Shown: positions 1 through 40,197 of the stretch, in pieces
Numbering within the stretch: position 1 is the stretch's first letter
Layout: each line of letters opens with the position of its first letter
NCBI GenBank assembly: GCA_031372565.1
Contig: JANMLN010000127.1
Coordinates: 1 to 62,727, forward strand
DNA length: 62,727 bases
Reading direction: 5' to 3'
From: Gemmatimonadota bacterium
GTDB lineage: Bacteria; Gemmatimonadota; Gemmatimonadetes; Gemmatimonadales; Gemmatimonadaceae
The notes under the pieces: generated by a model
Seen by the model: only the letters and a program-made list of their open reading frames with translations
Database searches by the model: none
What the model was told of the DNA's origin: nothing
Translations under genes and position numbers: made by a program

Positions 1-223
1 GCCGTTGTTGGTGCGGTCCGCCCCCGCCCGCCCCGGTCCCCGCCCCTTCGCGCCGGGCCCCCCCCGCTGCCCTTTTTGGGGGGGGGGGGCGCAAACAACC
101 GCGGCCCTGGCCCCCCCCCCCGCACGACACCGACGCCTTGAGGGGGGGGCCGGATGTGGCTAAGCTTCTAGGCTGTCCATCAGAACGACCCACCACGACC
201 GCCTTCGAGCATCTCAAAGCCAC

Positions 224-4488: not shown

Positions 4489-4517
4489 TTGCCACATGTT
4501 CCCGAGTTCCTTACGAT
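4489..4517 (+). promoter_or_regulatory. Sigma70-type promoter candidate for first susC
   Basis: TTGCCA-17 bp-TACGAT. Confidence 0.55.
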
Positions 4518-4875: not shown

Positions 4876-7800
4876 ATGAATATTCGGATACGGATCTTGA
4901 GCGGGATCGCGGCGTTGGCTGCGTTCGTGGGCACGAGTGCCACGGCGCAGGCACAGACGGCGACGATCAGCGGCAAGGTGGTCTCGGAGCAGGGGAATCC
5001 CCTGCTGGGGGCCAATGCGACCATCCCCGAGCTTGGGGTATCGGTCGGCTCGAACACGACGGGTATCTTCACCATCGTCATCCCCGGCGCGCAGGTGAAG
5101 AACCAGACGGTCACGCTGCGCGTTCGCGCCATCGGCTACGTGCCGATCAATCGGCAGATCGTCATCAAGGCTGGGACGCAGACGTCCGACTTCACGTTGC
5201 GCGCCGACGTGAACAAGCTCTCGCAGGTTGTCGTCACGGGTGTGACGGGCGCGACGGAAGCCACCAAGGTGCCGTTCGCCACGAACACGATCACGGCGGC
5301 CGACCTTCCGGTTCCGGCCACCAACCCGCTGACGCAGATCGCCGGCAAGGTGCCGGGCGCTGCCATCGTGTCGGCCAACGGCCGCCCGGGCGCGCAGCCT
5401 GCGGTGCTCCTCCGTGGTCCGAACGCCATCTCGGCGGCCGGTCGCGGTCAGGACCCGCTCTACATCGTGGACGGCGTCATCCTCAACGGCCCGCTCCCTG
5501 CGCTCAACCCGCAGGACATCGAGTCGGTCGAAGTGGTGAAGGGCGCGGCCGCCGCGTCGCTCTACGGCGCGCGCGCCGGTAACGGCGTCATCTCGATCAC
5601 GACCAAGTCCGGCAAGGGCCTGGGCGGCGCCGATGGCGTCCGCTTCTCGTATCGCGGTGAGTATGGCTCGAACGACATCGAGCGCCAGATCGGCATCGCG
5701 CAGCGCCACGGCATGTACCTCGACGAGACGGGCTCGCGCTTCTGCACCACGGGCAGCCTCGCGTCGGGCACGGCCATTCCCGGCCAGACCTTCGCCTGCG
5801 TGCGCACGCTCAACTACCAGGCCGAAGCGTTCCGCATCAACGACCAGGGCGGCGACTTCGCGCTGGCGCCGGCGGCGACCTTCACGCTCGATCCGGGCTC
5901 GGCCGTGACCGGTCAGCTCATCCGCAACCGCTTCCAGGCCGAGCAGTGGCCGGGGGCGACCTACAATGCGGTCGAGCAGCTGGCCCAGCCGACGGCCTTC
6001 TACATCAACAACCTCGACATGACCGGGCGGTATGCGCGCACGAGCTTCTTCGCGTCGCTCAACCAGCTCAACCAGGGGGGCGGCATCCGCGGCCTCCAGG
6101 GCTTCCGGCGTCAGTCGGTTCGCGCCAACATCGACCACTCGGTTGGCACGGACTGGAACTTCGCGATCCGCACCTACTACGCGCGCTCCTTCGAGGACGG
6201 CAACAACTTCGAGGAAGGCGGCGGTGGTGTGTTCTTCCGCCTGACCCGCGTGCCCCCGATCTCGAACCTGCTCCGCACGGACAGCAAGGGACGCGTCTTC
6301 GTTCGCAACAACCTGCAGGGCTCGGGCTCGCAGAACGACAACCCGGTCAACCTGCTCGCCTCGACCAACTACGGCCGCGAGACGGACCGCTTCATCGCGG
6401 GCACGTCGGCCCGGTACACGCCCAACAGCTGGCTCGATATCGAAGGCAACTTCTCGTATGACGCCTCGAGCCGGAACGAGAAGCTGTTCCAGGACCGCGG
6501 ATATCGCACGCCGGGCCCTGCGGCCTCGTCGGCGAACAACGGCTTCCTGAGCCGCCAGAACGTCAGCGCGGTGGCGTACAACAGCAGCCTGAACGCCACG
6601 CTGCGCAAGGATTTCGGCACGCAATTCCGCACCCGCCTCAACCTGCGCACGCTGTACGAGCAGCAGGACGGCCTGAACTTCAACCTGGCCGGCAGCGTGC
6701 TGGGCGCGACGGGCATCAACGCGCCGGGCAACATCGTTGACCAGACGCAGATCACGATCGGCGGCACCGAGACCTCGGTCCGGCAGATTTCGTACTTCGC
6801 CGGACTGAACCTGGAGTACAAGGATCGCTACATCGTGGACGCGCTCATCCGTCGCGACGGCTCGTCGCTGTTCGGGTCGGGCAATCGGTGGGCGAACTTC
6901 GGTCGCGTGTCGGGCGCCTATCGCATCACGCAGGAGCCCTGGTTCAAGGTTCCGGGCGTCAGCGAGCTCAAGCTGCGCGGGTCGTACGGCACCGCCGGTG
7001 GCCGTCCGAACTTCACGGCACAGTACGAGACGTTCAGCGTCACCAGCACGGCCATCCAGTTCGGCAACCTGGGCAACCGGTTCCTCAAGCCCGAGAACAT
7101 CGGCGAACTGGAACTCGGCTTCGATGCGGAGTTCTTCAACCGCATCGGCGTCAACTTCACCTACGCGAAGTCGCAGGCCGAAGACCAGATCCTGCTGGTG
7201 CCGTCGCCGGCCATCACCGGCTTCCGCAACCAGTGGCGGAACGCGGGCACGATCCAGAACGAGACCTACGAGGCCTCGGTCAACGTGCCGATCTTCACGG
7301 GCCGCGACCTGAGCTGGTCCGTGCGCACGATCTTCGATCGCACGCGCACCACGATCACCAAGCTCGATGTGCCGCCGTTCAACTTCGGCTCGAACTTGCA
7401 GGCGACGGATGCGGTCTTCCGCGCCACCCCGGGCCGCGCCTTCGGCGAGATCTGGGGCCGCACCTTCCTGACCGGGTGTGAGCAGCTGCCGACGGCGACC
7501 AACACGCCGGGTGGCTCGGTCAACTACCAGGCCGAGTGCTTCAATGGCAACTACTTCGCCAAGAACAACGAAGGCTACCTGTCGTACACGGGCTCGCGCG
7601 CTGGCGTGAACCCGACGAACGGCGGCCAGGGCATCACGAACAACCTGTGGAACACGGGCCTGCCCGCGGCATGGGCGCCGTGGGGCGCGCCGCTCGCCTT
7701 CGGTCACCCGATCGTGATGCGCGACAACAACGGCAGCGCGGTCATCAACCCGCTCGGCAGCTCGCTGCCCGACTACCGCGTTGCGGTGTCGTCGTCGTTG

Positions 7801-8360: not shown

Positions 8361-10157
8361 ATGATGCACATGTCCCGTAGGGTGTTCGCCACGCTGGCGT
8401 TGGCCGCCGTGGCGTGCAGTCCCGAAGACCAGTTGACGGTGCAGAACCCGAACAACCCCGAGACGGCCCGTACGCTGGCCCGTCCCGCGGATGTCGAGAG
8501 CTTCATCGCCGGTTCGTTCGCAACGTGGTACGACGCCAGCATGGGCGGTAGCAATGATGGCGTGCAGAACCAGATGGCCGTCATGGCCATGGAGAACGGC
8601 TCGTCCCTCGCGAACTTCGCGATGGGTCCGCGCGGCGCACTGCCGCGGTCCCCAGCCCTCAACGCGCGGCAGAACTTCGCCTCGACGCAGAACCTGAAGG
8701 AGTACAACGCCCTGTCGCGCTCGGCCGCCTCGGCTGCCCTCGGCATTGCACGTCTGGATGCCGGCGTCAACCTTGGCACCACGGCGCAGAACCAGCGCGC
8801 TCGTTCGTTCGGGTTCTTCGTGATGGGCCTCTCGCTGGGCTACCTGTCGCTCGTGTACGACTCGGCTGCGGTCACCAACCCGCAGACCGCCGCGCTCCTG
8901 CTCGCGGGCTCGCCGGCCGCGATCGATCTCGTCGGCCGCGACACGGTCCTGGCGCGCTCCATGGCGTACATGGACTCCGCGATCACGTGGGCAACGGATC
9001 CGACGACGGCGGCAGCCTTCCCGCTCCCGGCGAACTGGATTCCATCCAACGCGCTCACGAGTACGCAGTACGTGCAGCTCATCCGCTCGTTCAAGGCCAA
9101 GATCCGGGCCCAGTGGGCGCGGAACCCCACCGAACGTGCGGCCGTGAACTGGGCGCTGGTGCTGGCGGATGCGCAGGCGGGCATCACGAGCGACTTCATC
9201 CTCACGACCAACACCACGACACTGTTCAGCCCGGCGTGGCCGGTGCAGCACTACATCTACGGCACCTGGCACCAGATGCCGTACTCGATGATCGGCATGG
9301 CCGACACGTCGGGTGGCTATGCGGCGTGGATCGGTGGCGCTCCGCTTGGCGGACGCGGCATTGGCACGCCCAGCATTCCGTTCGCCATCCAGACGCGCGA
9401 CCTGCGCTTCCCGCAGCCGGCGTTCTCTGCCGCGCAGCCGACGGGTGGCTCGGTGCGTGATCAGCTCACGCGTGGTTCGGCGCCGCTCACCGGCGGTGTT
9501 GCGGGATGTTCGTTCCCGGCCACTGCAGTCGCTGGCGCACCGCCAACCTGCACGGCCGCGAATCAGATTCCGCTCGCCGTCGCGGGCGTGGCCGGTGGCC
9601 GTCCGTACTTCCGCATGCGTCCGTCCGGCGAGGATCCGTCCGCTGCTGGCTTCTTCGATTCGCAGTACGACTATTACCGGTTCCGTGCCTGGTTCAACCC
9701 GCCGTCCAACCGCAACGGGGCGTTCCCGCTGATGGTGCGCGCCGAGGTGTTGGGCTTGGTGGCCGAAGCGGCCATCCGGACTGGCAACTTCCCGGCGGCC
9801 ACGGCAGCCATCGACCTCACGCGGGTGCCCAATGGCCTCCCGTCGGTCGCTGGTATCGCTGACCTCGTCACCCCGGTTCCGGGTGGCATTCAGGGGTGCA
9901 TTCCGCGCGTACCGACCGGCGCGACCGGTCCGGTGGTGTGCGGTAACCTCCTCGAGGCCATGAAGTACGAGAAGCGTCTCGAGACGGCCTTCACGACGTT
10001 CGGCGGCTGGTTCTTCGATTCGCGTGGTTGGGGCGACCTGCCGCAGGGCACGTCGGTCCAATGGGCGGTACCTTGGCAGGAGCTCGACGCTCGCGTCAAG
10101 ACGCCGTACGACCGTCCGTTCACCGAGCTCGCCGGTCCGTCCGCGTACGGCTGGTAA
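8361..10157 (+). CDS. SusD/RagB-like nutrient-binding lipoprotein
   Basis: Lipobox-like AVAC, follows susC, RAEVLGLVAEA and YEKRLE...FFDSRGWG resemble SusD C-terminal motifs. Confidence 0.8.
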   Translation: MMHMSRRVFATLALAAVACSPEDQLTVQNPNNPETARTLARPADVESFIAGSFATWYDASMGGSNDGVQNQMAVMAMENGSSLANFAMGPRGALPRSPALNARQNFASTQNLKEYNALSRSAASAALGIARLDAGVNLGTTAQNQRARSFGFFVMGLSLGYLSLVYDSAAVTNPQTAALLLAGSPAAIDLVGRDTVLARSMAYMDSAITWATDPTTAAAFPLPANWIPSNALTSTQYVQLIRSFKAKIRAQWARNPTERAAVNWALVLADAQAGITSDFILTTNTTTLFSPAWPVQHYIYGTWHQMPYSMIGMADTSGGYAAWIGGAPLGGRGIGTPSIPFAIQTRDLRFPQPAFSAAQPTGGSVRDQLTRGSAPLTGGVAGCSFPATAVAGAPPTCTAANQIPLAVAGVAGGRPYFRMRPSGEDPSAAGFFDSQYDYYRFRAWFNPPSNRNGAFPLMVRAEVLGLVAEAAIRTGNFPAATAAIDLTRVPNGLPSVAGIADLVTPVPGGIQGCIPRVPTGATGPVVCGNLLEAMKYEKRLETAFTTFGGWFFDSRGWGDLPQGTSVQWAVPWQELDARVKTPYDRPFTELAGPSAYGW

Positions 10158-16873: not shown

Positions 16874-17467
16874 ATGACAACGATGCGACGCATCTGGCTG
16901 GCCGCTGTCGTGGCGCCTCTGGCGCTGACGGGCTGCGGGTACAACTCGATCCAGAAGTTTGATGAACAGGCGCAGGCGGCCAAGCAGCAGATCGAAGTGC
17001 AGTTGCAGCGGCGTGCGGACCTGATCCCCAATCTCGTGCAGACCGTGAAGGGGTATGCGGCGCAGGAGGAGGCGATCTTCGTGAAGGTCGCCGAGGCGCG
17101 TGCGGGGCTGCTGGGGGCCATCAAGGGGGGCGATCCGGCGCAGATGGCGGACGCCAACCAGGGGCTCACGGGGGCGATGGGGCGGTTGCTGGCGATTTCG
17201 GAGTCGTACCCGCAGCTCAAGAGCGACCAGTCGTTCTTGCGGCTGCAGGACGAGCTGGCCGGGACGGAGAACCGGATCGCGGTGTCGCGGACGGATTACA
17301 ACGCGGCGGTGCAGACGTACAACACGTACATCCGGTCGTTTCCGCAGGTGCTGACGGCGAAGGCGACGGGGGCGAAGGAGCGGACGTACTTCGAGACGAC
17401 GTCGGCGGCGGCGAAGGAGGTCCCGACGGTGGATTTCGGGAAGGGAGACGGTTCGAAGAAGCCATAG
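16874..17467 (+). CDS. lemA: LemA family protein
   Basis: QRRADLIPNLV, ESYPQLK, LAGTENRIAVSR..YN, SFP. Confidence 0.93.
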   Translation: MTTMRRIWLAAVVAPLALTGCGYNSIQKFDEQAQAAKQQIEVQLQRRADLIPNLVQTVKGYAAQEEAIFVKVAEARAGLLGAIKGGDPAQMADANQGLTGAMGRLLAISESYPQLKSDQSFLRLQDELAGTENRIAVSRTDYNAAVQTYNTYIRSFPQVLTAKATGAKERTYFETTSAAAKEVPTVDFGKGDGSKKP

Positions 17468-17577
17468 CTTTTCCCGTGGTGTAGGCGGGTCGGCTTCGGG
17501 TTTTATTCTGTTCCATTAAGATATTGTTAATCGGCTCAAGTTCTGGGGATTCCGGGGCTTGGGCCGATCTTTTCTTA

Positions 17578-17606
17578 TTGACAGCACCGTGACGGACACG
17601 TACCGT
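17578..17606 (+). promoter_or_regulatory. Sigma70-type promoter upstream of second susC
   Basis: TTGACA-17 bp-TACCGT. Confidence 0.65.
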
Positions 17607-17613
17607 CACAATC

Positions 17614-17808
17614 ATGGAACCTTACCGCCTCGGCTTTTCCGTGGGCGGCGGCGTTGGCTTCGTACCCGAAGCGGCGTCGCCCGACCGTGTATTCGGTTGG
17701 GCGACGCCTCGTTTTTTTCTTCGGAACGAGCGGCGTTTGGCCACCCAATTGGCGATCCGAGGTTCAGGCCCCGGTCCGGTGTCGCGCGGGCACGCGGGAG
17801 CCGGCTGA
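17614..17808 (+). CDS. Candidate leaderless leader ORF (64 aa)
   Basis: ATG 7 nt after the -10 box; no homology recognised. Confidence 0.3.
   Translation: MEPYRLGFSVGGGVGFVPEAASPDRVFGWATPRFFLRNERRLATQLAIRGSGPGPVSRGHAGAG
17673..17721 (+). terminator. Intrinsic terminator inside the susC leader
   Basis: GGCGTCGCCCGACCG-TGTATT-CGGTTGGGCGACGCC then TCGTTTTTTTCTT. Confidence 0.8.
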
Positions 17809-17968
17809 CGGCGATCCCCGAGAGCTGAAGGAGGGCTACGTCACGCGTACAGCTGTTGTTCGAGTAGGTGAAGTGCCGCAGGGTAGTGCAGGAGTAGCAG
17901 GCAGGAGTGGAGTGCTGGTGAGCGCCGCCGACCATCGGCGGGAAACATTCCCGGAGGAACGAGGACTC

Positions 17969-20900
17969 ATGAATCGCAACGTGTTTCGTCTGATGAGTGC
18001 GGTGGTCGCATCGGCAGTGATGCCGATGGCGGCAATTGCGCAGCAGGCGACGATCACGGGCAGCGTGCGGAACGAGCTCGGTGAGCCGCTTCGCTACGCA
18101 ACCGTGTCCGTCGAGCGCCTGAACGCAGGGGCGCAGACCAATGAGAACGGCGTCTATACCATCGTGGTGCCCGGCGCGCGCGCCGAGGGCCAGTCGGTGA
18201 CGATCACGGCCCGGTTGGTGGGGTTCAAGCCGCAGAGCCAGACCTTCGTGCTGGCGTCCGGCACGTCGACCAAGGATTTCCGTCTCGAGAAGAACCCGCT
18301 GCTCCTGGGTGAGGTCGTCGTGACGGGTTCGGGCACGACCAACGTTCGCGAGCGTCTCGCCTCGGACATTTCATCGGTCAAGTCCGAAGACATCAAGAAG
18401 TCGAACGAAGTCAACATCGTGAACTCGTTGGCCGCCAAGGCCCCGGGCGTCGAAGTGACGTCGCAGGCAGGTGATCCGGGCGCAGGCAGCCAGATCATCA
18501 TCCGCGGCATCAAGACGCTGCAGGGTTCGGCGCAGCCGCTGTTCATCGTCGACGGCGTGCCGATCGACAACTCGTCGACGTTCACCAGCCAGTCGGGCGA
18601 CATCGGCACGGTGACGACCAACCGTGCGGCCGACATCAACCCGAACGACGTCGAGTCGATCGAAGTCCTCAAGGGTGCGGCCGCCTCGATGCTCTACGGC
18701 CAGCGCGCCTCGGCCGGCGTCATCCTGATCACGACCAAGGCCGGTCGTGCCGGCGAGACCCGCTACACGCTGTCGTCGAACAACACGTTCGATGAAGTCA
18801 ACCGAACGATCCCGATGCAGTCCACGTACTGCCGCGGCAACAAGGGGGTGAATGCGGCCCCCGAGTGCGGTGGTCCGGCCTACGGCCTCGGCGCCGCGCC
18901 GCAGTCCCGCTCGTGGGGCAATGTGGTCCCGACGGGCACGCAGACCTACGATCACTTCGGTGAGCTCTTCCGCACGGGCAACACGTTCGACAACACGCTC
19001 TCCATCTCCGGTGGTGATGCGCGTCGCACATTCTTCCTGTCGGCCGGCGCGACCAACCAGAAGGGCATCATCGTCGGGCCGAACAACGAGTACAACCGGT
19101 ACACGGTCCGCCTCAAGGCGACGCAGCAGCTGACGGATGAACTCCGCATCGGCGGCAACATCAGCTACGCCGACATCCGGGCGCGCTACGTGCAGCGCGG
19201 CAACAACCTGAACTCGCTCCTCCTCGGCGCAACGCGCACCCCGCCCGAGTACAACAGCGCCAACTACGTCGATGCGGTCACGGGTGCACAGATCAGCTAC
19301 CGCCGCCCGCGCCCGATCGACATCACGCAGGACCCGGTGTACGACAACCCGTTCTGGGTCGTCAACAAGCACACCAACACGAGCAACGTCGGCCGCACGG
19401 TCGGCAACATCCTCGTGGACTACCAGCCACTCAACTGGCTCAAGGTCAACTACACCTTGGGCGCGGACTACTACGCCGACGACCGCGTGTCGGCACTGCC
19501 CCCGGGTTCGGCCGGCGACGGACTGCCCGGCCAGATCTACCAGGGCAACTACAGCAACCTGATCATCGACCATAACCTGCTCGTCACGGCGCAGCGGGAT
19601 CTGGGCACCAACGTGCAGCTCCGCGCGTCCCTCGGTCAGAACCTCAACCTGCGCCGCTTCAAGGTGCTGCAGGTCGTCGGCTCGGGCTTCTCGGATCCGA
19701 CGCTGCTCACGCTGAACAACACGATTCCGTCCAACCTGCAGCCGCAGAACTTCGAGTCGAAGATCAACATCGGCGGCTACTTCGGTCAGGTCGAGGCCGA
19801 CCTGTGGAATCAGGTCTTCCTCTCCGGCGCCGTTCGCGCCGACCAGGCGTCGACGTACTCGACGGCCAACCGCACCAACTACTTCCCGAAGCTCTCGGGT
19901 GTGTGGAACGTGTCGAACACGCTGGGCAACACCACGCAGCGCGGGGTGCTCTCCTTCCTGAAGGTCCGCGCGGCGTACGGTCAGGTGGGCCGTGAGCCGG
20001 GCGCGTACCAGACGCTCACCACGTTCGGCAACGCCAGCGGCTTCTTCGCCTACGGCGGCGGTCCCACGACCGCGACGCAGGCCGGCCAGAACGGCCTCTA
20101 CTCGAGCGGCACGCTGGGCTTCACCGACATCAAGCCGGAGATCACGTCCGAGATCGAGTTCGGCGCGGACTTCGGATTGTTCAACCAGCGCATTGACGGA
20201 TCGATCACGTACTACGATGCGCAGACGACCGACGTGATCCTGTCGGTGCCGCTGCCGAGCTCGACGGGCTTCTTCTCGATCAACAAGAACGGCGCGAAGA
20301 TCGAGAACAAGGGCGTCGAAATCAGCCTGAACGGCCGCGTCATGGAGCGCACCAACTTCCGCTGGGAAGCGGGGGTGAACTTCACGCGCAACCGGAACCT
20401 CGTGAAGGACGTGCTGGGTGCCGAGTTCGTCGGCATCGCGGGCGGCTTCGGCGCGTCGGCGGCCGTCGCGAACAATCCGCTGGGCACGTTCTACCAGACG
20501 GACTTCGTGCGCTGCCTGTACAACGTTCCCGACAACACGAACATTCAGCCCGGGTCCGGCGTGCCGGGGAACGACATCAACGCGTACTGCCGCGCGCAGG
20601 GCGCCCCGCAGGGTGCGCTCTTCATCGATGCCACCGGCTTCCCGATTGCCGACGCGCAGAACCGCTCGACCGGTGACCCGAACGCCAACTATCTGCTCGG
20701 TCTCCGCAACAACATCACGCTCTACAAGAAGCTCAGCATCTCGATGCTGGTCGACATCAGGAACGGCGCCCAGAACTGGAACGGCACACGGGGCGCGCTC
20801 CAGAGCTTCGGCAAGGCGGTCTCGACGGCGGACAAGGGTCGCGCGGTGTACAACAGCGGGACCGGTACCTACACCGGTGGCGTGCGCACCTTCGGCACCG

Positions 20901-21274
20901 ACATCTTCGAAGGGGCTGTCACGGGCCCGGGCAAGGGCACGGCGGTCTCGGTCGGCCAGAACTGGTGGCGTGACGGCATCGGCGGCGGCGTGTTTGCCGG
21001 CCCCAGTGGCCAGCTCGTGGACAACGGCGCCTTCACGCGCCTTCGTGAAATCTCGGTCGCGTACTCGTTCGATCAGCCGTGGGTCAAGAAGTCGCTTGGC
21101 CTCTCGAGCATCGACATGCGCGTCTCGGGCCGCAACCTCAAGGTCTGGACCGACTATGAAGGTGTGGACCCGGAAACGAACCTCTTCGGTGGCACGGGCA
21201 TTGGACGTGGCATCGACTACTTCAACAATCCCCAGTCGCGGTCGTGGGCCATCAACTTCACCCTCAACCGCTAA
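17969..21274 (+). CDS. SusC/RagA-family TonB-dependent outer-membrane transporter
   Basis: GAGG RBS, signal peptide, EVVVTG, QPLFIVDGVP, DINPNDVESIEVLKGAAAS.LYG, GVDPE near the C-terminus. Confidence 0.94.
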   Translation: MNRNVFRLMSAVVASAVMPMAAIAQQATITGSVRNELGEPLRYATVSVERLNAGAQTNENGVYTIVVPGARAEGQSVTITARLVGFKPQSQTFVLASGTSTKDFRLEKNPLLLGEVVVTGSGTTNVRERLASDISSVKSEDIKKSNEVNIVNSLAAKAPGVEVTSQAGDPGAGSQIIIRGIKTLQGSAQPLFIVDGVPIDNSSTFTSQSGDIGTVTTNRAADINPNDVESIEVLKGAAASMLYGQRASAGVILITTKAGRAGETRYTLSSNNTFDEVNRTIPMQSTYCRGNKGVNAAPECGGPAYGLGAAPQSRSWGNVVPTGTQTYDHFGELFRTGNTFDNTLSISGGDARRTFFLSAGATNQKGIIVGPNNEYNRYTVRLKATQQLTDELRIGGNISYADIRARYVQRGNNLNSLLLGATRTPPEYNSANYVDAVTGAQISYRRPRPIDITQDPVYDNPFWVVNKHTNTSNVGRTVGNILVDYQPLNWLKVNYTLGADYYADDRVSALPPGSAGDGLPGQIYQGNYSNLIIDHNLLVTAQRDLGTNVQLRASLGQNLNLRRFKVLQVVGSGFSDPTLLTLNNTIPSNLQPQNFESKINIGGYFGQVEADLWNQVFLSGAVRADQASTYSTANRTNYFPKLSGVWNVSNTLGNTTQRGVLSFLKVRAAYGQVGREPGAYQTLTTFGNASGFFAYGGGPTTATQAGQNGLYSSGTLGFTDIKPEITSEIEFGADFGLFNQRIDGSITYYDAQTTDVILSVPLPSSTGFFSINKNGAKIENKGVEISLNGRVMERTNFRWEAGVNFTRNRNLVKDVLGAEFVGIAGGFGASAAVANNPLGTFYQTDFVRCLYNVPDNTNIQPGSGVPGNDINAYCRAQGAPQGALFIDATGFPIADAQNRSTGDPNANYLLGLRNNITLYKKLSISMLVDIRNGAQNWNGTRGALQSFGKAVSTADKGRAVYNSGTGTYTGGVRTFGTDIFEGAVTGPGKGTAVSVGQNWWRDGIGGGVFAGPSGQLVDNGAFTRLREISVAYSFDQPWVKKSLGLSSIDMRVSGRNLKVWTDYEGVDPETNLFGGTGIGRGIDYFNNPQSRSWAINFTLNR

Positions 21275-21282
21275 CCGGACAG

Positions 21283-22737
21283 ATGACTTCATACATGAGC
21301 ACGACTCATATCCGCACCGCGCTGGGGGCCTTGGCCCTCAGCGCAGGGCTGGTGGGCTGCGTGGACTTTACCGGCCCCGGGATTGACGCGAATCCGAACC
21401 TTCCGTCCGCGGCGTCGCCGCGTCAGCTCTTCCCTGCCATCCAGGCGTTCCAGCAGGCGACGGTGCTCGGTGACCCGGCGCGCTACGTCACCATCTGGGC
21501 GCAGCAGATGATGGGCATCAACCGCCAGTGGTCCTCCATCGCCCGGTACGGGCTCGTGGACGAGAGCCTGCAGAGCTGGGGCAACTGGTACACGGGTGGT
21601 GGCTTGCTTGACCTCCGTCTCATCCAGTCCTCGTCCGCTGCGAGCGGCGACTTCAAGTTCGTCGGCATTGCGCAGACGTACGAGGCGCTGATCATGGAGG
21701 CTGCCGCCGATTACTGGGGCGACATCGTGTACAAGCGCAACGGTGTGCTGCAGGCCGTGCAGTCCAACATCCCGACACCCGCGCTCGAGCGGCAGGACTC
21801 GGTTTACGCCGACCTGCAAATCCTGCTGGACTCGGCGATCGTGAACCTTGCGGGCGCAGGCGCCGGTCCGGGACTCACGGACCTCGTCTACGGTGGCAAC
21901 ACCGCGCGATGGTCGGCGATGGCACATACGCTCAAGGCGCGCATTGCCATGCACCAGCGCAATTACGCGCTGGCCGTCACCGAGACAGCGCTGGGCATCA
22001 CGTCCAAGGCTGGCGACTACAACGGATACGCGTCAGCCACCACGGGCGAGGAGAACGGGTGGTTCCAGTTCCGTCGTAATCGTGGCACGGACATCTCTGC
22101 CGGCGATACGCTCGTGACCATGATGGCAGCTCGTGCGGACACCGTCCGCATGAAGGCGTACTTCGCTCGCTGGATCCGTCCGCAGGGAGCCGGCGTCCCG
22201 GCGCCCGTCGATACGGGCATCTTCAAGGGTGCGAAGCCCGGTGACGAGGATGACGGTACCCAATCGTGGCTCTCGGCCGCGCGCGGTGGCCCGGCGTTCC
22301 GGCAGCCGTGGGTGACGTATGACGAGAACCAGCTCATCCGTGCCGAAGCGCTGGCGCTGGCGGCTGGTGGTAGCGACGCGGCCGCCCTCGCCGCGTTGCA
22401 GGCCTACAAGACGGCGAACGGCCTCACGTTCAACTTTGCCGCTCCGGCCACTGGTGCTGCGCTGCGCCAGGAAATCATGAACGAAAAGTTCATCGCCCTC
22501 TTCCAGAATCCGGAAGTGTGGAGTGACTACAAGCGCACCTGCACGCCGAACCTTCGGCCCAACCCGACGGCCGTTGCCCCGGATAACAAGATCCCGATGC
22601 GCTTGTTCTACGACACCGGCGAGCGTCAGACGAACCCGAACATTCCGCTGCCTTCTGCGCAGCCGAGCCGCAATTTCGTCGACCGCCCCGGTGCGCCGAC
22701 GCCGTACAGCGGCGGTGCGTGCCTCGCACAGCCGTAA
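21283..22737 (+). CDS. SusD/RagB-family lipoprotein
   Basis: Lipobox LVGC, NPN, DYWGDI, QDSVYADLQILLDSAI, DLVYGGN, EKFIALFQNPEVWSDYKRT. Confidence 0.9.
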   Translation: MTSYMSTTHIRTALGALALSAGLVGCVDFTGPGIDANPNLPSAASPRQLFPAIQAFQQATVLGDPARYVTIWAQQMMGINRQWSSIARYGLVDESLQSWGNWYTGGGLLDLRLIQSSSAASGDFKFVGIAQTYEALIMEAAADYWGDIVYKRNGVLQAVQSNIPTPALERQDSVYADLQILLDSAIVNLAGAGAGPGLTDLVYGGNTARWSAMAHTLKARIAMHQRNYALAVTETALGITSKAGDYNGYASATTGEENGWFQFRRNRGTDISAGDTLVTMMAARADTVRMKAYFARWIRPQGAGVPAPVDTGIFKGAKPGDEDDGTQSWLSAARGGPAFRQPWVTYDENQLIRAEALALAAGGSDAAALAALQAYKTANGLTFNFAAPATGAALRQEIMNEKFIALFQNPEVWSDYKRTCTPNLRPNPTAVAPDNKIPMRLFYDTGERQTNPNIPLPSAQPSRNFVDRPGAPTPYSGGACLAQP

Positions 22738-27674: not shown

Positions 27675-30600
27675 TCAACTCCCGCGGACAAGTCGGACCC
27701 GTTCCTGACCGAGCAGGGCCCTGAGTTCGGTGAGCGCGGCGCCGGTGGCGGCGATGCGCAGCGTGCGTGAGCGCCAGCGGGCAGTGGCGGTGGAGCCGCC
27801 ATCGTGCCAGCGCACTTCAATGGGGGACGCGCCCGGATGTGCCTCGGCGACCGCGCGGACATCGCGCATGACGTCGGGGGCCAGCGCCGGACCACGGCCG
27901 AGTTCGATGGCGACGGCCACCGCACCCGTGCTGCGGACCTCCGCAAAGCGCTGCACGGTCTCGACGATGAACGTCGGGGTGTCGGCGCCCTGATCACGCC
28001 GCGAGTAGCCGCCCTTGATGAGCACGGGGATGTCGACCTTCACCCGGTCGCCGACGGCGGCCCATGCCTCCGGGAAGACGAGCAGCTCGGTGGTGCCGGA
28101 GAAATCCTCGACGGTCATCCGGGCGAACTCGGCCCCGGACTTCTTGGAGATCTGCTTCTTGATGGCCGTGATCACGACGCCCATGGTCATCGCGCCCTCC
28201 TGCCAGGTGCCGAGCTGTGCGACCGTGTGCGAGGCCATGAGCTCGCAGTCGGTGCGGAACGGTTCGAGCGGATGGCCGGAGATGTAGAAGCCGAGGACTT
28301 CCTTCTCGCGCGTCAGGCGCTCGGACTCCGACATGGGGGCGACGTTGGGGAGCGTCGTCGCGGTGGCGGACGGCGCGTCGCTCCCTGCGACGGCCTCGCC
28401 GAAGAGCGAGACCTGACCCGACGCGCGCTCCTCGTGCATGAAGGCGGCTTCCTGCAGCGCGCCATCGACCATCGCGAGCAGCTGCGCGCGGTGCGCGCCG
28501 CCCAGGTCATCGAGCGCGCCCGAGCAGATGAGCGCCTCGAAGACGCGCTTGTTGCAGAGCCGGAGATCGACGCGCGACGCGAGATCGTGCAGCGAGTCGA
28601 ACGGCTTGCCGGCGCGCGCGGCGAGGATCGAGTCGATGGCGCCGCGGCCGACGTTGCGGATGGCGCCGAAGCCGAAGCGGAGCCGCTTGTCGCCGATGAC
28701 GGTGAACTTGTAGTTCGACTCGTTCACGTGCGGCGCGAGCACCTCGAGTCCCAGCTCGCGGGCCTCGTTGATGTACTTCACGACCGAGTCGGTGTCGCCG
28801 ATGCAGGCGGACAGGAGCGCGGCCATGAAGTCGGCCGGGTGGTGCGCCTTGAGCCACGCCGTGTGATAGGCAACGACCGAGTACGCGACCGAGTGCGACT
28901 TGTTGAAGCCGTAGCGGCCGAAGGTCTCGATCTGTCCCGCAATGTCCTCGATGACCGCCTTGGCGTGGCCCTTGGCGACCGCCTTGGTGATGAACTTGCC
29001 CAGCTCCTTCTTGATGAGCTCGGCGTCCTTCTTGCCGACGGCCTTGCGCAGCACGTCGGCTTCGGCCAGCGAGATGCCGCCGAGCACCTGCGCGATGCGC
29101 ATCACCTGTTCCTGATAGGTGATGACGCCGTAGGTGGGCTCGAGGATCGCCTGCAGCTCGGGGAGCTGGTAGGTGACCGGCTCCTCGCCGCGCTTGCGCT
29201 TGATGTAGACCTTGTGCATGCCGGCATCGAGCGGGCCGGGGCGGAGCAGCGCGTTGGACGCGACCAGGTCGTCGAACCGGTCGCAGCGCATCGAGCGCAA
29301 CACGTCGGTGGCGAGCGGCGATTCGAACTGGAAGACGCCGGCGGTGCGACCGGCGCGCAACATGCGATACGTGGCGTCGTCGTCGAGCGGCAGCGTGTCG
29401 AGGTCGATGTCGACCCCCGACCGCGCCTTGATCGACTTGACCGCGTCGGTGATGACGGTGAGCGTCGTGAGGCCGAGGAAGTCCATCTTGAGCATCCCGG
29501 CCTTCTCGAGCGCGTTCATGTCGTACTGCGTGACGACGACCGTCTCGTCGTAATTGCCGCCCGCGCCCTTGGTCACCGGCGTGCTGGGGGGGACGTAGTC
29601 GTCGAGCGGGCCCGGCGCGATGACGACACCGGCCGCGTGCACGCCGGTGTGACGCGAGAGTCCCTCGAGCGCGATGGCGTAGTCGAGCAGCCCGGCGATG
29701 CGCTCGTCGTCCTTGTAGAGCTTCTTGACTTCCGGCAGCTGCTTGATCGCCTCGGCAACCGTGAGCGAGAAGTTCGGCGCGTTGGGAATCAGCTTGGCCA
29801 GTGCGTCCGTCTCGGCCGGGGTGAAGCCGAGCACGCGACCGACGTCCTTGATGGCCGCGCGCGACTTCATCGTCCCGAAGGTGACGATCTGGCCGACGGC
29901 ATCGCGGCCGTACTTCTGCCGCACATACTCGATGACTTCGCCGCGCCGCTCGAAGCAGAAGTCGACGTCGATGTCGGGCATCGACACGCGCTCCGGATTC
30001 AGGAAGCGCTCGAAGAGCAGGTCGAACTTGAGCGGGCAGACGTCGGTGATGCGGAGCGCGTAGGCCACGAGCGATCCGGCGGCCGAGCCGCGACCGGGGC
30101 CCACGGGAATGCCGCGATCCCGCGCGGCCTTGATGAAGTCGTGGACGATCAGGAAGTAGCCGGCATAGCCCGTCTTGGTGATGACGGCGAGCTCGTAGTC
30201 GAGGCGTTCGCGGACGTCGGCGGGGAGGACCTCGCCGTAGCGCACGCGCGCCCCCGCCTCCGAGAGGCGCACCAGCAGCGCATTCTCGCTCTCGTCGCCC
30301 TCCTCGAGCGGGAACGACGGCACGTGGTATGTCTTGCCGAAGGTGATGTCCACCGTGTCGGCGATCTTGAGCGTGTTCTCGAGGACGTCCGGCCGGTCGG
30401 GGAAGACGGCCGCCATCTCCGGCGCGGACTTGAAGTACAGCCCGTCGTCGTATTTCATGCGATCGCGGTCTTCGCGATCCTTGCCGAGTCCGATGCAGAG
30501 GAGGACGTCGTGGGCGTCGTGATCCTCGTGCTTCAGGAAGTGGGCGTCGTTGGTCGCGATGACAGGCAGCCCGAGGTCCTTTCCGAGCCGGAAGATCTCG

Positions 30601-31160
30601 CCATTGAGCTTGGCCTGGCCTTCGCTGCCGTGCGCCTGGACCTCGAGGTAGTAGCGGTCCTTGAACAGCTCGGCGTACCAGCTCGCGGCTTCCTTGGCCT
30701 CGTCGTACCGGTCGCCCATGAGGTGCGTGGCGACTTCACCGGCCAGACAGGCGGAGGAGACGATGATCCCCTCGCTGTGCTTGGCGAGCAGCTCGCGGTC
30801 GATGCGCGGGCGGACGTAGAACCCCTCGGTGTACGCCAGCGACGTGAGCTTGACCAGGTTCTTGTACCCGGTCATGTCGCGCGCGAGCAGCACGAGGTGG
30901 TAGTACGGCTTGGACCCCGGGGTACGTGCCTTGAGGCGCCGGTCCCCCGGTGCGACGTACGCCTCCATGCCGAGGATGGGCTTGATGCCCGCCTTCTTCG
31001 CCTTTTCCTGGAACTCCCAGGCGGCGTGCATGTTGCCGTGGTCGGTGATGGCCACCGCCGGCTGCTCGAACTCCTTGGCGCGAGCAATCAGCTGCTCGAT
31101 CCGGTTGGCCCCGTCCAGCAGGGAGTACTCGGAATGGCAGTGGAGGTGTACGAATCCCAT
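27675..31160 (-). CDS. dnaE: DNA polymerase III alpha subunit
   Basis: HLHCHSEYSLLDG PHP, GRGSAAGS, SMPDIDVDF, KMDFLGL, YGFNKSHS. Confidence 0.98.
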   Translation of the reverse strand: MGFVHLHCHSEYSLLDGANRIEQLIARAKEFEQPAVAITDHGNMHAAWEFQEKAKKAGIKPILGMEAYVAPGDRRLKARTPGSKPYYHLVLLARDMTGYKNLVKLTSLAYTEGFYVRPRIDRELLAKHSEGIIVSSACLAGEVATHLMGDRYDEAKEAASWYAELFKDRYYLEVQAHGSEGQAKLNGEIFRLGKDLGLPVIATNDAHFLKHEDHDAHDVLLCIGLGKDREDRDRMKYDDGLYFKSAPEMAAVFPDRPDVLENTLKIADTVDITFGKTYHVPSFPLEEGDESENALLVRLSEAGARVRYGEVLPADVRERLDYELAVITKTGYAGYFLIVHDFIKAARDRGIPVGPGRGSAAGSLVAYALRITDVCPLKFDLLFERFLNPERVSMPDIDVDFCFERRGEVIEYVRQKYGRDAVGQIVTFGTMKSRAAIKDVGRVLGFTPAETDALAKLIPNAPNFSLTVAEAIKQLPEVKKLYKDDERIAGLLDYAIALEGLSRHTGVHAAGVVIAPGPLDDYVPPSTPVTKGAGGNYDETVVVTQYDMNALEKAGMLKMDFLGLTTLTVITDAVKSIKARSGVDIDLDTLPLDDDATYRMLRAGRTAGVFQFESPLATDVLRSMRCDRFDDLVASNALLRPGPLDAGMHKVYIKRKRGEEPVTYQLPELQAILEPTYGVITYQEQVMRIAQVLGGISLAEADVLRKAVGKKDAELIKKELGKFITKAVAKGHAKAVIEDIAGQIETFGRYGFNKSHSVAYSVVAYHTAWLKAHHPADFMAALLSACIGDTDSVVKYINEARELGLEVLAPHVNESNYKFTVIGDKRLRFGFGAIRNVGRGAIDSILAARAGKPFDSLHDLASRVDLRLCNKRVFEALICSGALDDLGGAHRAQLLAMVDGALQEAAFMHEERASGQVSLFGEAVAGSDAPSATATTLPNVAPMSESERLTREKEVLGFYISGHPLEPFRTDCELMASHTVAQLGTWQEGAMTMGVVITAIKKQISKKSGAEFARMTVEDFSGTTELLVFPEAWAAVGDRVKVDIPVLIKGGYSRRDQGADTPTFIVETVQRFAEVRSTGAVAVAIELGRGPALAPDVMRDVRAVAEAHPGASPIEVRWHDGGSTATARWRSRTLRIAATGAALTELRALLGQERVRLVRGS

Positions 31161-36704: not shown

Positions 36705-36787
36705 TTGTCGTCCTGAGCGAAGCGAAGGACCTGCTTGTGGTGGGCGGGGCGAAAAAAGCGGGTCCTTCGCTGCGCTCAGGACGACAA
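36705..36787. repeat. Inverted pair of REP-like repeats (36705-36736 and 36756-36787)
   Basis: TTGTCGTCCTGAGCGAAGCGAAGGACCTGCTT ... AAGCGGGTCCTTCGCTGCGCTCAGGACGACAA. Confidence 0.9.
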
Positions 36788-36789
36788 CG

Positions 36790-37986
36790 TCAGCGCGATT
36801 CCGACCGGAAGCGCCAGAACGTCAGCGAGTCCCGCTTGATGCCAAGCAGGCGACGCTCGCCGGGCGCCCGGTCGTTGGTAAGCAGCTCGTGCAGGTCCGA
36901 GAGCACCGAGCCGTTGATGAACAGCGTATGGCCCAGAAAATCACCGCGCACGCGGGTCGCATCGATCGTGTCCATCTCCTTGAGCACGACGAGCGAGTCG
37001 CCACCCAGGCCCAGTCGCCAGACCCCGTTGAGCACGCGCGAGGCGCGCAGCGCTTCGTCTTCGTTGGACGCGTACACCGTGATGCGCTTGGCCTTGGGCA
37101 CGAGGCGCGGCAGCACTTCGCGGCGGAAGAAGCGGGCGTCGACATCGGGCGCGGCGAACACCGCATGGGTGATCGGCGGCACGGAGTCGCCCAGGATGCT
37201 GATGGCGCGCGAGACCACCTCGGAGCCCATGGAGTGCGCCACGAGCAGCACACGGTCGGCGTCGACGCTCGCGGGAAAGTCGCGCAGGAAGCGGGCGAGG
37301 TAGAAGCCCGCATTGCGCGCCGCCTGTTGGTCGCGGACATAGCTCGACATGGCGCCGGCCGACGGCCAGTCGAAGATCAGGACCGCGCCGTCGAGATCGG
37401 TGTCGGCGGCGATCTGCGCCGCGCGGATCGCCGCGTCCTCGAACGACACGTTGTAGCCGTGCACAAAGATGAGGAGCGAGCGCGACGCCGTCGCGGTGAG
37501 CGCATCGGTGACGGCGCGCGCGAACAGGGCGGCATTGGTGCCGCGGACGTCGCGCAGGTACATGTCCTTGGTCGAGTCGGGCTTGTACCAGAAGCGACTG
37601 ACCCGCGTGGTGGGCGGCCGGGGGGTCTCGCCCTGGCGGCGCACGGCATAGCCCGGCACGTTCACCTTCACGAGCGCGAACTGCACCGAGTCGGCGTCGT
37701 CACCGCCGAACATGTCGCCGGGGCGGTCGGTCGTGACGGAGCGGCGCAGCGTGGCCGCGAAGATGGGCACCTGCATCGCGCCCGTATCGAGCGCGGCCCA
37801 CGAACGGCGCGCGGTGGCGCGCGGAGCGGGCGGCCTGGGGGGTGGCGTTGCGGGCGCGACGACGACGGGCGCCACCACCGTTGCGGGCGCCGGACTGGGC
37901 GTGGTTGCTGGCGCAGGCGTGCCGCCGCATGCGGCGATGATGATGAGGCTGAGAGCGAACGGCGTGCTGCGCGTCAGGCGTGCCAT
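36790..37986 (-). CDS. Alpha/beta hydrolase lipoprotein (DUF900-like)
   Basis: Lipobox IAAC, FVHGYNVSF, FDWPS, AHSMG, AAPDVD. Confidence 0.85.
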   Translation of the reverse strand: MARLTRSTPFALSLIIIAACGGTPAPATTPSPAPATVVAPVVVAPATPPPRPPAPRATARRSWAALDTGAMQVPIFAATLRRSVTTDRPGDMFGGDDADSVQFALVKVNVPGYAVRRQGETPRPPTTRVSRFWYKPDSTKDMYLRDVRGTNAALFARAVTDALTATASRSLLIFVHGYNVSFEDAAIRAAQIAADTDLDGAVLIFDWPSAGAMSSYVRDQQAARNAGFYLARFLRDFPASVDADRVLLVAHSMGSEVVSRAISILGDSVPPITHAVFAAPDVDARFFRREVLPRLVPKAKRITVYASNEDEALRASRVLNGVWRLGLGGDSLVVLKEMDTIDATRVRGDFLGHTLFINGSVLSDLHELLTNDRAPGERRLLGIKRDSLTFWRFRSESR

Positions 37987-38007
37987 GCGGGGGCGGCGTG
38001 GGGAGGG

Positions 38008-38056
38008 AGAAGCAGGTCCTTCGCTGCGCTCAGGACGACGGCGCGCTCAGGACGAC
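38008..38056. repeat. REP-like repeat plus partial tandem copy
   Basis: AGAAGCAGGTCCTTCGCTGCGCTCAGGACGAC then GCGCTCAGGACGAC. Confidence 0.88.
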
Positions 38057-38063
38057 ATCGCGC

Positions 38064-38780
38064 TCACGGCGTCGGCGTGAGGAACAACGCCAAAGCTTCC
38101 GGTGACAGCTCGTCCACCGCAAGGTCGAGAATCTCCGACATCACGCCAATCGTCGCGTCCTCGACGTGCGCGCCGATCGACTCCGCCACCGGCTCGCCGC
38201 GAGCGACCAGTTCGGCGGCGATGCTCGTCATGTGCACATCCGTGATCCCGCAGGGCACCATCAGGTCGAAGAAGCTCAGGTCCGTCGTGACATTGAGCGC
38301 GAAGCCATGCCACGTCACCCACTGTCGGGCATGCACGCCGATCGACGCGATCTTGCGGCCCTCGACCCACACACCCGTCTGCCCCTTCTGCCGGCCTGCC
38401 TCGATGCCGAACCGGTCGCACACGCGCATGCACGCTTCCTCGAGCATGCGCAGGTACCAGTGCAGATCGGGCTTGTGCACTTGCAGGTCGACAATCGGGT
38501 ACGCGACCAACTGTCCCGGCCCGTGGAAGGTCACGTCGCCGCCACGCTCCGCCTCGTGCACCTCGACGCCACGGGCATCGAGCAGCGCCCGGCTGGCCGT
38601 GAGGTTCGCCTGCTTGAAGGCGCGGCCCAGCGTGATGACAGGCGGATGCTCGCACAGAATGAGCAGGTCGTTGGCGAGCGTGCCCTCGATGCGCGCACGG
38701 GCGGCGGCACGCTGGATGGCCAGCACCTCCGTCCATGGCCGCCGCCCGTAGCGAACGACGAGCAGGTCGCGCGGCGCCAC
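38064..38780 (-). CDS. lipB: Octanoyltransferase
   Basis: EHPPVITLG, RGGDVTFHGPGQ, KIASIG, HGFALN, PCG. Confidence 0.95.
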   Translation of the reverse strand: MAPRDLLVVRYGRRPWTEVLAIQRAAARARIEGTLANDLLILCEHPPVITLGRAFKQANLTASRALLDARGVEVHEAERGGDVTFHGPGQLVAYPIVDLQVHKPDLHWYLRMLEEACMRVCDRFGIEAGRQKGQTGVWVEGRKIASIGVHARQWVTWHGFALNVTTDLSFFDLMVPCGITDVHMTSIAAELVARGEPVAESIGAHVEDATIGVMSEILDLAVDELSPEALALFLTPTP

Positions 38781-38796
38781 GGCCCGGGACCCGCGA

Positions 38797-40197
38797 CTAC
38801 GCGTGGATCATGCGGCCCATCGCATCGAGCGTGGCCTCGGCGATCGCCTCGGACAGCGTCGGATGTGCATGGATCGCGAGCTCGATCTCCTCGACCGTGA
38901 ACTCGTTCTCGCGCGCGACGGCGAGCTCGTGGATCAGCTCGGTGGCGTGCGCGCCGACGATGTGCGCGCCCAGGATCTCGCCGTACTTCACGTCGCGGAT
39001 GATCTTGACGAACCCTTCGGTCTCGCCCGAGGTGCGCGCGTGGCCGTTGGCGGAGAAGGGGAACTTGCCGACCTTGTACTCGATCTTCTTCTCCTTCACC
39101 TGCGCCTCGGTCATGCCGATCGACGCGACTTCCGGATGGCAGTACGTGGCATTCGGGATGTTGCCGTAGTTCACGAGGTGATGCGACTTCCCGGCGATGA
39201 CCTCGGCCACCACCATCCCCTCGCGCTCGCCCTTGTGCGCGAGCATCGGCGGACCGGCCACGTCGCCGATGGCGTAGATGCCGGGCGCGGTCGTCTCGAG
39301 CTTCGGCGTCACCTTGATGAAGCCGCGATCGGTGAGCTGCACGCCGGCTTCCTTGAGCCCGAGGTTCTCGACGTTCGCGGCGCGGCCTGCGGCGACGAGC
39401 ACCTTCTCGAACTCGAGCTCCTGCTTGGCGCCGCCAGCCTCGAGCGAAATCTTGACGCTGTCCTTGCCGACCTTGGTGCTCGTGAGCTTCGCGGCGGTGA
39501 TCACGTCGATGCCGCGCTTCTTGAAGCTGCGCTGGACTTCAGCCGAGCTGTCCTCGTCCTCGAGCGGCAGGATGCGCGGCGCGACTTCGAGCAGCGTGAC
39601 CTTGCTGCCGAACGCCTGGAACACGTCGGCGAACTCGCAGCCCACCGCGCCGGCGCCGACGATGGCCCTCGTCCTGGGCGCCTTGTCGAGGTTGAGCGCT
39701 TCATCGCTCGAGATGACGGTGCTCGTGTTGAGCTCGAGCCCGGCCTGTGGCAGCCCCTTCACGCGCGAGCCGGTCGAGATGACCACGGCCTTGGTGGCCG
39801 TGTGCGTCTCGGTCTTGCCGTCGGCCACGACGCTGACCGACTTGCCCTTGCCCAGCGTGCCGGTTCCCTTGATCCAGGTGATCTTGTTCTTCTTGAACAG
39901 GAACTCGACCCCCTTGGAGTTCTTGCTCGAGATGTCGCGCGAGCGCTTCATGGCGACGCCGTAGTCGGTCTTGACCTCACCGGTCGTGACCCCGAACTCG
40001 GCCGCGTGCTTCACCTTGGTGGCGATGCTGGCCGCTTCGAGCAGCGCCTTGGCCGGGATGCAGCCCCAGAGCACGCAGGTGCCGCCCAATCCCTCGCGCT
40101 CGATGACGCCCACGGTGAGTCCGAGCTGGGCGCAGCGGATGGCGCCGACATAACCGGCGGGGCCGCCGCCGAGGAAGAGCACGTCGTACTGGGCCAT
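38797..40197 (-). CDS. lpdA: Dihydrolipoamide dehydrogenase (E3)
   Basis: GGGPAGY, GGTCVLWGCIP, YAIGD, HAHPTLSE. Confidence 0.96.
   Translation of the reverse strand: MAQYDVLFLGGGPAGYVGAIRCAQLGLTVGVIEREGLGGTCVLWGCIPAKALLEAASIATKVKHAAEFGVTTGEVKTDYGVAMKRSRDISSKNSKGVEFLFKKNKITWIKGTGTLGKGKSVSVVADGKTETHTATKAVVISTGSRVKGLPQAGLELNTSTVISSDEALNLDKAPRTRAIVGAGAVGCEFADVFQAFGSKVTLLEVAPRILPLEDEDSSAEVQRSFKKRGIDVITAAKLTSTKVGKDSVKISLEAGGAKQELEFEKVLVAAGRAANVENLGLKEAGVQLTDRGFIKVTPKLETTAPGIYAIGDVAGPPMLAHKGEREGMVVAEVIAGKSHHLVNYGNIPNATYCHPEVASIGMTEAQVKEKKIEYKVGKFPFSANGHARTSGETEGFVKIIRDVKYGEILGAHIVGAHATELIHELAVARENEFTVEEIELAIHAHPTLSEAIAEATLDAMGRMIHA

Follow-up and report, generated by a model that had tools for sequence, protein, structure and literature searches.

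The 62,727-nucleotide (nt) contig JANMLN010000127.1 (GenBank assembly GCA_031372565.1), referred to here as the window, comes from a genome of the Gemmatimonadaceae with a G+C content of ~65%. It carries a susCD gene pair that lies behind lemA (Table 1), and the relatives of its SusC are annotated as SusC/RagA proteins of Gemmatimonadaceae. An initial annotation of the window had placed an attenuator-like switch with a leaderless open reading frame (ORF) in the gap between lemA and susC, and this element is the subject of the present analysis. Judged by its conservation, the element is a real, selected and lineage-restricted RNA structure of the plus strand that lies between a conserved promoter and susC.

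The susCD pair is isolated among housekeeping genes. A TPM-domain gene lies upstream of lemA, and metG, a PSP1-domain gene, accA and dnaE follow susD on the opposite strand; among these neighbours there is neither a regulator gene nor a gene for a glycan-degrading enzyme adjoining susCD. A search of the window for tRNA and tmRNA genes found none.

For comparison, an alignment of 28 SusC relatives was used as the query for a profile search of genome contigs, which gave at least 70 loci. The sole close orthologue among the matches listed is the locus L001, whose SusC is 85% identical to that of the window and which has the same order of lemA, gap and susC.

Table 1. Features of the lemA-susCD region of the window
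Feature	Position	Strand	Remarks
lemA	16874-17467	+	Pfam LemA; a 500-nt gap separates lemA from susC
Terminator-like hairpin (18 pairs, 17530-68) and CTTTTCTTAT	17530..17578	+	After lemA; context, outside the element
-35 hexamer TTGACA	17578..17583	+	Identical in L001
-10 hexamer TACCGT (TAnnnT)	17601..17606	+	17 nt 3' of the -35 hexamer; identical in L001
Predicted transcript start A17614, the ATG of the 64-codon ORF	17614..17616	+	Inferred from the position of the -10 hexamer
64-codon ORF	17614..17808	+	Runs through the terminator; judged not to be a conserved peptide gene
Hairpin H1, CCGCCTCGG with CCGTGGGCGG	17625..17648	+	9 pairs, one bulge, loop CUUUU
Antiterminator helix (predicted)	17647..17681	+	17647-17656 with 17672-17681, stacked on H2
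Hairpin H2, GCTTCG with CGAAGC	17657..17672	+	6 pairs, loop UACC
Hairpin H3	17673-17708	+	15 pairs (12 G-C), 6-nt loop; intrinsic terminator-like; with tail 17673..17718
Rest of the predicted susCD leader	17719..17968	+	Shine-Dalgarno-like GGAGG (17953-57) and GAGG (17961-64)
susC	17969-21274	+	Pfam Plug and CarboxypepD_reg; ATG at 17969; SusC/RagA-type
susD	21244-22737	+	Pfam SusD-like_2; with susC, the genes presumed to be controlled

The promoter in the lemA-susC gap

The promoter of the initial annotation, TTGACA and TACCGT 17 nt apart with an ATG 7 nt later, is present exactly as described. In L001 the ATG lies 6 nt from the -10 hexamer, and the CATG is conserved. Only two sites of the form TTGACA-16..18-TAnnnT occur in the whole window on both strands; the other one, TTGACA-17-TATTAT at 31198 on the minus strand, lies just upstream of dnaE (27675-31160, minus strand).

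In addition to L001, tblastn matches placed lemA directly upstream of a SusC homologue in 10 further loci. Of the 12 loci with LemA-susC synteny (the window included), 10 have a sense-strand TTGACA-16..18-TAnnnT site no more than 600 nt ahead of susC, against a background of 31 sites in 1.97 Mb; the two remaining loci, L057 and L047, have none within 600 nt of the susC start. The gap contains a single site with at least four of six matches to the -35 hexamer followed by TAnnnT, in the window and in L001 alike. The proposed switch depends on susC not being driven solely from downstream of 17721, and no second such site was found between 17721 and 17968 or in the matching stretch of L001, in a scan that covered promoters of the sigma-70 type (promoters of other sigma factors are possible). 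Since the same promoter type occupies the same place in another 8 syntenic loci, none of which has the element, we conclude that TTGACA-17-TACCGT is in all probability the susCD promoter, and that the element would be the start of the susCD leader and not a separate gene. The predicted leaders of these 8 element-free loci are 157-274 nt long, compared with 302 nt in L001 (susC ATG at 6242) and 355 nt in the window; in the latter two, the added ~100 nt correspond to the element, which is where their leaders begin.

Among 48 SusC-upstream regions (loci L001-L068), in which tblastn matches give the approximate gene starts, 20 have TTGAC[AG] or TTGCCA followed by a 16-18-nt spacer and TAnnnT. Leaders of 150-350 nt behind a near-consensus -35 hexamer are thus usual for the clade of the window's SusC (mostly 150-300 nt among the 48 regions). 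The first susC of the window (ATG at 4877) has a consensus-like promoter as well, TTGCCA-17-TACGAT at 4489-4517, and a predicted leader of ~352 nt, in which no terminator-like site was found. The leaders of the first and the second susC share a few G/U-rich words that are not general among leaders.

Other features surround the promoter. The terminator-like hairpin that follows lemA, one of two in the gap, abuts the -35 hexamer; it marks the end of the lemA unit and shields the susC promoter from transcription that arrives from upstream. It is not kept in L001, where this part is 42% identical. A 27-nt block, TTCGGGTTTTATTCTGTTCCATTAAG (17495-17521), ~60 nt upstream of the -35 hexamer, is 81% identical to L001 between flanks of 42-48%, and may serve as an activator site or as an upstream element of the promoter. 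An inverted repeat, GTGACGG-N7-CCGTCAC, spans the promoter spacer and the -10 hexamer (17589-17609), and the corresponding position in L001 (~5921-5934) holds the palindrome GACGGTACCGTC. This repeat may be an operator for a DNA-binding regulator, in which case susCD would be under conventional control that competes with the RNA model discussed below.

A folded RNA under selection

The 107-nt RNA behind the promoter folds to exactly three hairpins, H1, H2 and H3, at -57.6 kcal/mol, compared with -40.1±3.6 kcal/mol for shuffled sequences (z = -4.86; none of 200 shuffles was as stable). All three, including the 15-bp stem with its T7 tract, lie where the initial annotation had put them, and so does susC, whose ATG is found 248 nt after 17721. 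The 11-nt 5' tail ahead of H1 is unpaired, and H3 is followed by TCGTTTTTTT, that is, UCG and then the U7 run (17712-17718).

L001 keeps the promoter and all three hairpins. Identity between the two sequences is 69% in the promoter, 71% in H1-H2 and 78% in H3; outside the element it falls to 42-48% for the flanks and, over the rest of the leader, to 23-47% for the middle and 66% for the 3' part. From the two sequences RNAalifold independently predicts the same three hairpins. The initial annotation had called for a test of covariation in orthologous leaders, and L001 bears out the structure: of the 30 pairs, three are changed on both sides, one per hairpin (G-C to A-U in H1, G-C to U-A in H2 and A-U to G-C in H3), three on one side, one of them in H2, and none is broken. 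Substitutions fall in 9 of 60 paired columns as opposed to 24 of 50 unpaired ones (Fisher p = 0.0003), and all six touched pairs are kept, an outcome that random placement of the nine paired-column substitutions produced in none of 20000 trials. The loops are conserved at only 1 of 5 (H1), 1 of 4 (H2) and 2 of 6 (H3) positions, and the best-conserved unpaired stretch is the linker (7 of 8). Because several pairs are G-U, and because the minus strand gives a weak covariance match (28.9 versus 130.1 bits, H3 only), the selected object is the plus-strand RNA and not a DNA palindrome.

A covariance model (R1) was built from the window and L001 and searched over the window and the 70 loci. It matched in full only at window 17612-17721 and at L001 5937-6043 (71 sources, 984,655 bases); the further matches, at 24 bits or less, were plain terminators only. 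The absence of a second full copy in either source, within the sequence searched, argues against a dispersed repeat similar to repetitive extragenic palindromic (REP) sequences or miniature inverted-repeat transposable elements. The Rfam scan proposed in the initial annotation returned no described family, as neither the window nor 7 loci gave a match at the gathering score. With E-values of up to 10 for the lemA-susC gap and up to 1 for the L001 gap only weak matches appeared, the best (E = 0.6 and 0.017) being to unrelated small RNA (sRNA) models and reflecting terminator-like similarity. A search for more relatives by way of the minus-strand 107-amino-acid ORF that covers the element gave no candidate.

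Terminator-like sites and T runs were also sought in other susC leaders. The leaders of L005 and L003 gave no terminator-like site in the scan. In L062, whose leader is without the element, a terminator-like hairpin with T7 (9934-9963) stands ~45 nt before the susC ATG, and the leaders of L039, L048, L063 and L038, likewise without the element, carry T runs of 6-8. Runs of at least six T are enriched, with 8 in the 2552 nt of ten predicted leaders compared with 0.12 expected from the background of all sequence analysed, in loci that are related and so not independent. The idea that all lineages keep a U run at a constant position near +100 was considered and rejected: the T runs of L039 and L048 and those of L063 and L038 fall in different alignment columns, so the positional match is not homology and only the general enrichment is kept. 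A shared G/U-rich word (GTTGTTCG and similar) was likewise discarded, as the only words that a k-mer test showed to be enriched in 49 upstream regions were those of the Shine-Dalgarno sequence and of TTGACA. L039, L048, L061, L063 and L038 share a conserved leader of their own, with a CGCGCG-N9-CGCGC hairpin and an internal GGAGGTGCACGGA. In the same five loci the lemA-susC gap is ~1050 nt long and holds an extra conserved, coding-looking stretch, by eye presumably an M23 peptidase-like gene, ahead of the susC promoter.

Two further structures were noted. A hairpin with the sequence CCGCCG ACCAU CGGCGG (17925-17941) lies ~30 nt before the Shine-Dalgarno sequence, and L001 retains it with an extended stem. 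The 5' arm of this hairpin is the complement of GGCGGCG, the linker sequence of the element. Elsewhere in the window, and unrelated to the susC leader element, a REP-like repeat of ~54 nt has seven copies (36739, 37993, 41139, 41196, 46061, 46878 and 46915, within 36709-46968), with the core GAGAAGCGGGTCCTTCGCT(T/G)CGCTCAGGACGAC and a long inverted pair at 36709-36785.

Competing pairings and the open reading frame

The terminator scan accepted H3 both in the window and in L001, in the latter with the weaker tail AGTTCGTTTC. The sequence directly behind the L001 stem, AGUUCGUUUC, satisfies the 5-of-8 rule of that scan but has few U in its first positions. Upstream of the terminator an alternative pairing is available. 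Folding of successive prefixes gave an antiterminator as the minimum-energy fold of nascent transcripts of 66-80 nt, in both the window and L001; in it, the 5' arm of H3 pairs with the linker, GGCGGCG(U/C)U, and H2 is extended to a 15-pair helix. The conservation of the linker fits a role in this pairing. The pairing of the H3 arm with upstream sequence gains -13.8 kcal/mol, compared with -8.6±3.1 kcal/mol for shuffles.

The attenuator-like topology of the initial annotation, a terminator with a competing upstream pairing, is thus present, with one correction to its set of mutually exclusive helices. The pairing of its segments 2 and 3 exists, in L001 as well (8 of 9 pairs invariant), although its energy gain is only marginally above shuffles, and it does exclude the terminator helix. 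The best antiterminator register (-32.3 kcal/mol, versus -24.2 kcal/mol for the register given originally) overlaps H1 by 2 nt, which shortens H1 from 9 to 7 pairs; only in the original register is H1 excluded. Because the overlap is no larger than this, the topology is one of two states, antiterminator or terminator, and not the three-way layout of trp.

The ORF at the predicted start does read through the terminator and has Gly at codons 7, 11, 12, 13 and 15, five within codons 7-15 as had been noticed. In both sequences its frame is open to an aligned TGA, with a net length difference of 6 nt. Its length is not above chance, as an uninterrupted run of 64 or more sense codons comes after 724 of the 1457 ATG triplets of the window. 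Between the window and L001, 13 of the first 26 codons are identical and 13 differ non-synonymously, with no synonymous change, whereas lemA shows 45 synonymous and 23 non-synonymous codon changes; beyond the terminator the two peptides are barely alike. The G+C content at third codon positions (GC3) is 0.66, compared with 0.82-0.90 in the neighbouring genes. A word-index search with the 64-amino-acid sequence found no candidate relative, and the only HMMER match among 1.84 billion representatives, a 1454-amino-acid protein made of repeats, 13 of which add up to the 33% match, was judged spurious. The peptide, therefore, shows neither a coding signature against L001 nor relatives, and the suggested control by translation of a meaningful peptide finds no support in the codon changes or in GC3. 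The GGC GGC GGC codons (17644-17652) lie within the 3' arm of H1 and the 5' arm of the antiterminator, and not in segment 1. None of the other 8 predicted leaders has a start codon at its 5' end.

Possible roles in susCD expression

We tentatively favour, at somewhat less than even chances, the reading that the element, with which the ~355-nt susCD leader begins, acts as a promoter-proximal attenuator or terminator and would also yield an RNA of ~100 nt. Several observations weigh against it. The consensus sigma-70 scan skips the TTGACA-17-TACCGT site, because TACCGT fits TATAAT at only 3 of 6 positions. The element is carried by two sequences only, so the covariation rests on one species pair, and most SusC leaders of the related loci are without a terminator-like site. 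In L001 the hairpin is conserved and the stop signal is not: its U-tract is weak, so RNA polymerase may stop there with low efficiency, and what has been conserved may be a function of the hairpins themselves. The energy gain of the antiterminator is equalled by 28 of 500 shuffled upstream sequences for the window and by 15 of 500 for L001. Its ninth pair is changed on one side (U-G to C-G) and its arms are otherwise invariant, so there is no evidence of covariation in it, and H1 does not act as an anti-antiterminator in the best register. In addition, the terminator state has an advantage of 24 kcal/mol over the antiterminator (-56.3 versus -32.3 kcal/mol) and replaces the antiterminator step by step in the prefix folds, with no barrier; a switch, therefore, needs an outside factor.

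Two other readings seem unlikely to us. In one, the element is a stand-alone sRNA gene of ~100 nt with its own promoter and terminator, placed between lemA and susC by chance or for the sake of co-regulation, which acts in trans by base pairing, while susC depends on another promoter. A promoter, three hairpins and a terminator with U7 form the canonical layout of an intergenic sRNA, the same criteria being applied in the Bacteroides thetaiotaomicron map (PMC7366714); the structure is under selection, and the conserved unpaired linker could serve as a seed. That reading is made less likely by the lack of any other sigma-70-like site for susC between the terminator and the gene, in the window or in L001, and further by the occurrence of the same promoter type upstream of susC in the 8 syntenic loci without the element, by the weak U-tract of L001 and by the lack of a second copy in the 985 kb searched. 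Nor does the 5' tail pair with the susC start region better than shuffles do: as an anti-Shine-Dalgarno, acting in cis or in trans, it was rejected, since its -14.2 and -14.0 kcal/mol were equalled by 219 and 183 of 1000 shuffled tails. In the other, which we rate as equally probable, the element is a constitutive leader module that does not switch, serving messenger stability or acting as a fixed partial terminator that damps a strong promoter, and the alternative pairing is a folding intermediate of a G+C-rich RNA. The small margin of that pairing over shuffles and its displacement without a barrier agree with this, as do the unconserved loops, in which no specific contact with a ligand or protein is evident, and the retention in L001 of the hairpin but not of the U-tract. 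Protective 5' hairpins, however, are not known to follow an unpaired 5' tail such as the 11 nt ahead of H1, a 15-bp stem with U7 right behind a promoter with a consensus -35 hexamer would waste most transcripts, and the linker is conserved though unpaired in the final fold.

The remaining two assign the decision to a ribosome or to a ligand. That a ribosome on the 5'-terminal AUG of a leaderless transcript reads through H3, and either keeps the terminator from forming when it trails the polymerase closely, in the manner of pyrBI, or senses the supply of Gly-tRNA, is very unlikely, even though in both sequences the predicted start falls on an ATG, part of a short conserved island (CATG), and the frame stays open through the terminator to the aligned TGA. 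The codon changes, GC3 and the lack of protein relatives (the single match being a repeat artefact) argue against it, as do the facts that 50% of window ATGs open a frame of such length and that the other 8 predicted leaders do not begin with a start codon. A ribosome stalled on the Gly codons would, moreover, cover the antiterminator arm that they form and so favour termination, which is the wrong sign for starvation-induced uptake or for a nutrient importer. Coupling of the pyrBI kind, for which the peptide sequence is irrelevant, is possible, and its positive support is the conserved CATG only. Least likely of all, and extremely so, is a ligand-sensing riboswitch with H1-H2 as its aptamer, the ligand control that the initial annotation had allowed for. 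Such an RNA would indeed sit in a leader and precede a terminator with a competing helix; this one, however, offers only ~58 nt with two plain hairpins, all three loops and most unpaired bases differ between the window and L001, and no Rfam model matches at the gathering score in the window or the 7 loci.

Comparison with known systems gives a similar picture. Promoter-proximal intrinsic terminators and attenuators in 5' leaders are familiar as conditional terminators from 3'-end mapping and as the trp and pyrBI types. The susCD element resembles these in its promoter, its short structured leader with a G+C-rich hairpin and U run before the first gene, and its upstream segment able to pair with the 5' arm of the terminator. 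It differs in that its leader peptide is not conserved, segment 1 is free of regulatory codons and a sensor is not recognisable, in that H1 and the antiterminator of the best register are compatible, in its presence in two genomes only, and in that it would control a SusC/SusD outer-membrane pair of Gemmatimonadaceae. Protein-dependent antitermination targets, such as the two-hexaloop motif of ANTAR proteins and the ribonucleic antiterminator (RAT) hairpins of BglG and LicT, likewise have a pair of small hairpins that immediately precede a terminator and overlap with it. In a comparison of the motifs themselves, the loops of the element (5 and 4 nt) differ and are not conserved, and no such regulator gene lies nearby.

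The B. thetaiotaomicron catalogue describes sRNAs derived from 5' untranslated regions (UTRs) and from intergenic regions, with a cognate start and an intrinsic terminator, as well as long 5' UTRs that contain small ORFs resembling those of leader peptides (PMC7366714). The element is like these sRNAs in being an RNA of ~100 nt with its own start, shared with the mRNA, and a Rho-independent terminator; it differs in belonging to another phylum, in having no sequence or Rfam relationship to them and in being known from sequence alone. The same source also reports DonS, that is, RNAs of 78-128 nt associated with polysaccharide utilization loci, next to susC homologues in Bacteroides, which are cis-antisense and divergently encoded (PMC7366714). 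As with DonS, a small RNA would be physically linked to a susC gene; unlike DonS, it lies on the sense strand, co-directional with susC and in the susC leader. By the measure of Rfam, the susCD leader RNA belongs to no described family; the mechanism proposed for it is of a known type.

The promoter, the three hairpins and the selection on them, their place inside the one susC transcription unit that can be recognised and the existence of an available alternative pairing are shown here, and from these we infer how a terminator or attenuator might work here. The element would form the first ~105 nt of the susCD messenger, transcribed from about A17614 by way of the conserved sigma-70-type promoter. 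The nascent RNA would fold into H1 and H2, and the 5' arm of H3, upon emerging, would pair first with the conserved GGCGGCG linker and extend H2 into the antiterminator. Once the 3' arm emerged, the more stable 15-bp H3 would displace the antiterminator and, with U7, stop RNA polymerase, which would release the ~100-nt RNA and keep susCD expression low. An RNA of this size is expected whether the element is a leader or an sRNA gene. Expression of susCD would then require read-through, and with it an outside factor that holds the antiterminator or blocks H3; none can be named from the sequence, and candidates include an RNA-binding protein, the kinetics of polymerase or ribosome, or another RNA.

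It is a distinctly unlikely, wider proposal that SusC/SusD transporters of Gemmatimonadaceae are generally controlled by premature termination in their long leaders, with read-through set by a ribosome on the 5'-terminal AUG or by an RNA-binding factor that holds GGCGGCG/CGUCGCC; the window's locus would then be its plainest example. If true, this would be an attenuation mechanism for a SusCD system, of which we found no report in the literature searched; the same literature yielded nothing on susC leaders, sRNAs or start-site maps of Gemmatimonadota. The narrow distribution of the element limits its wider impact unless the mechanism is general.

The analysis also provides a usable promoter consensus, TTGACA, 17 nt and TAnnnT. 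The element bears on the question of how Gemmatimonadota regulate their many SusC/SusD-type outer-membrane importers. For the importers of Bacteroidota, protein regulators are the known controls. Some small RNAs are also counted among the controls of susC/susD there, according to the catalogue (PMC7366714). Since a selected RNA with a strong terminator stands directly behind the only recognisable susCD promoter, RNA-level control is a concrete and testable proposal for this uncultured lineage of soil and groundwater.

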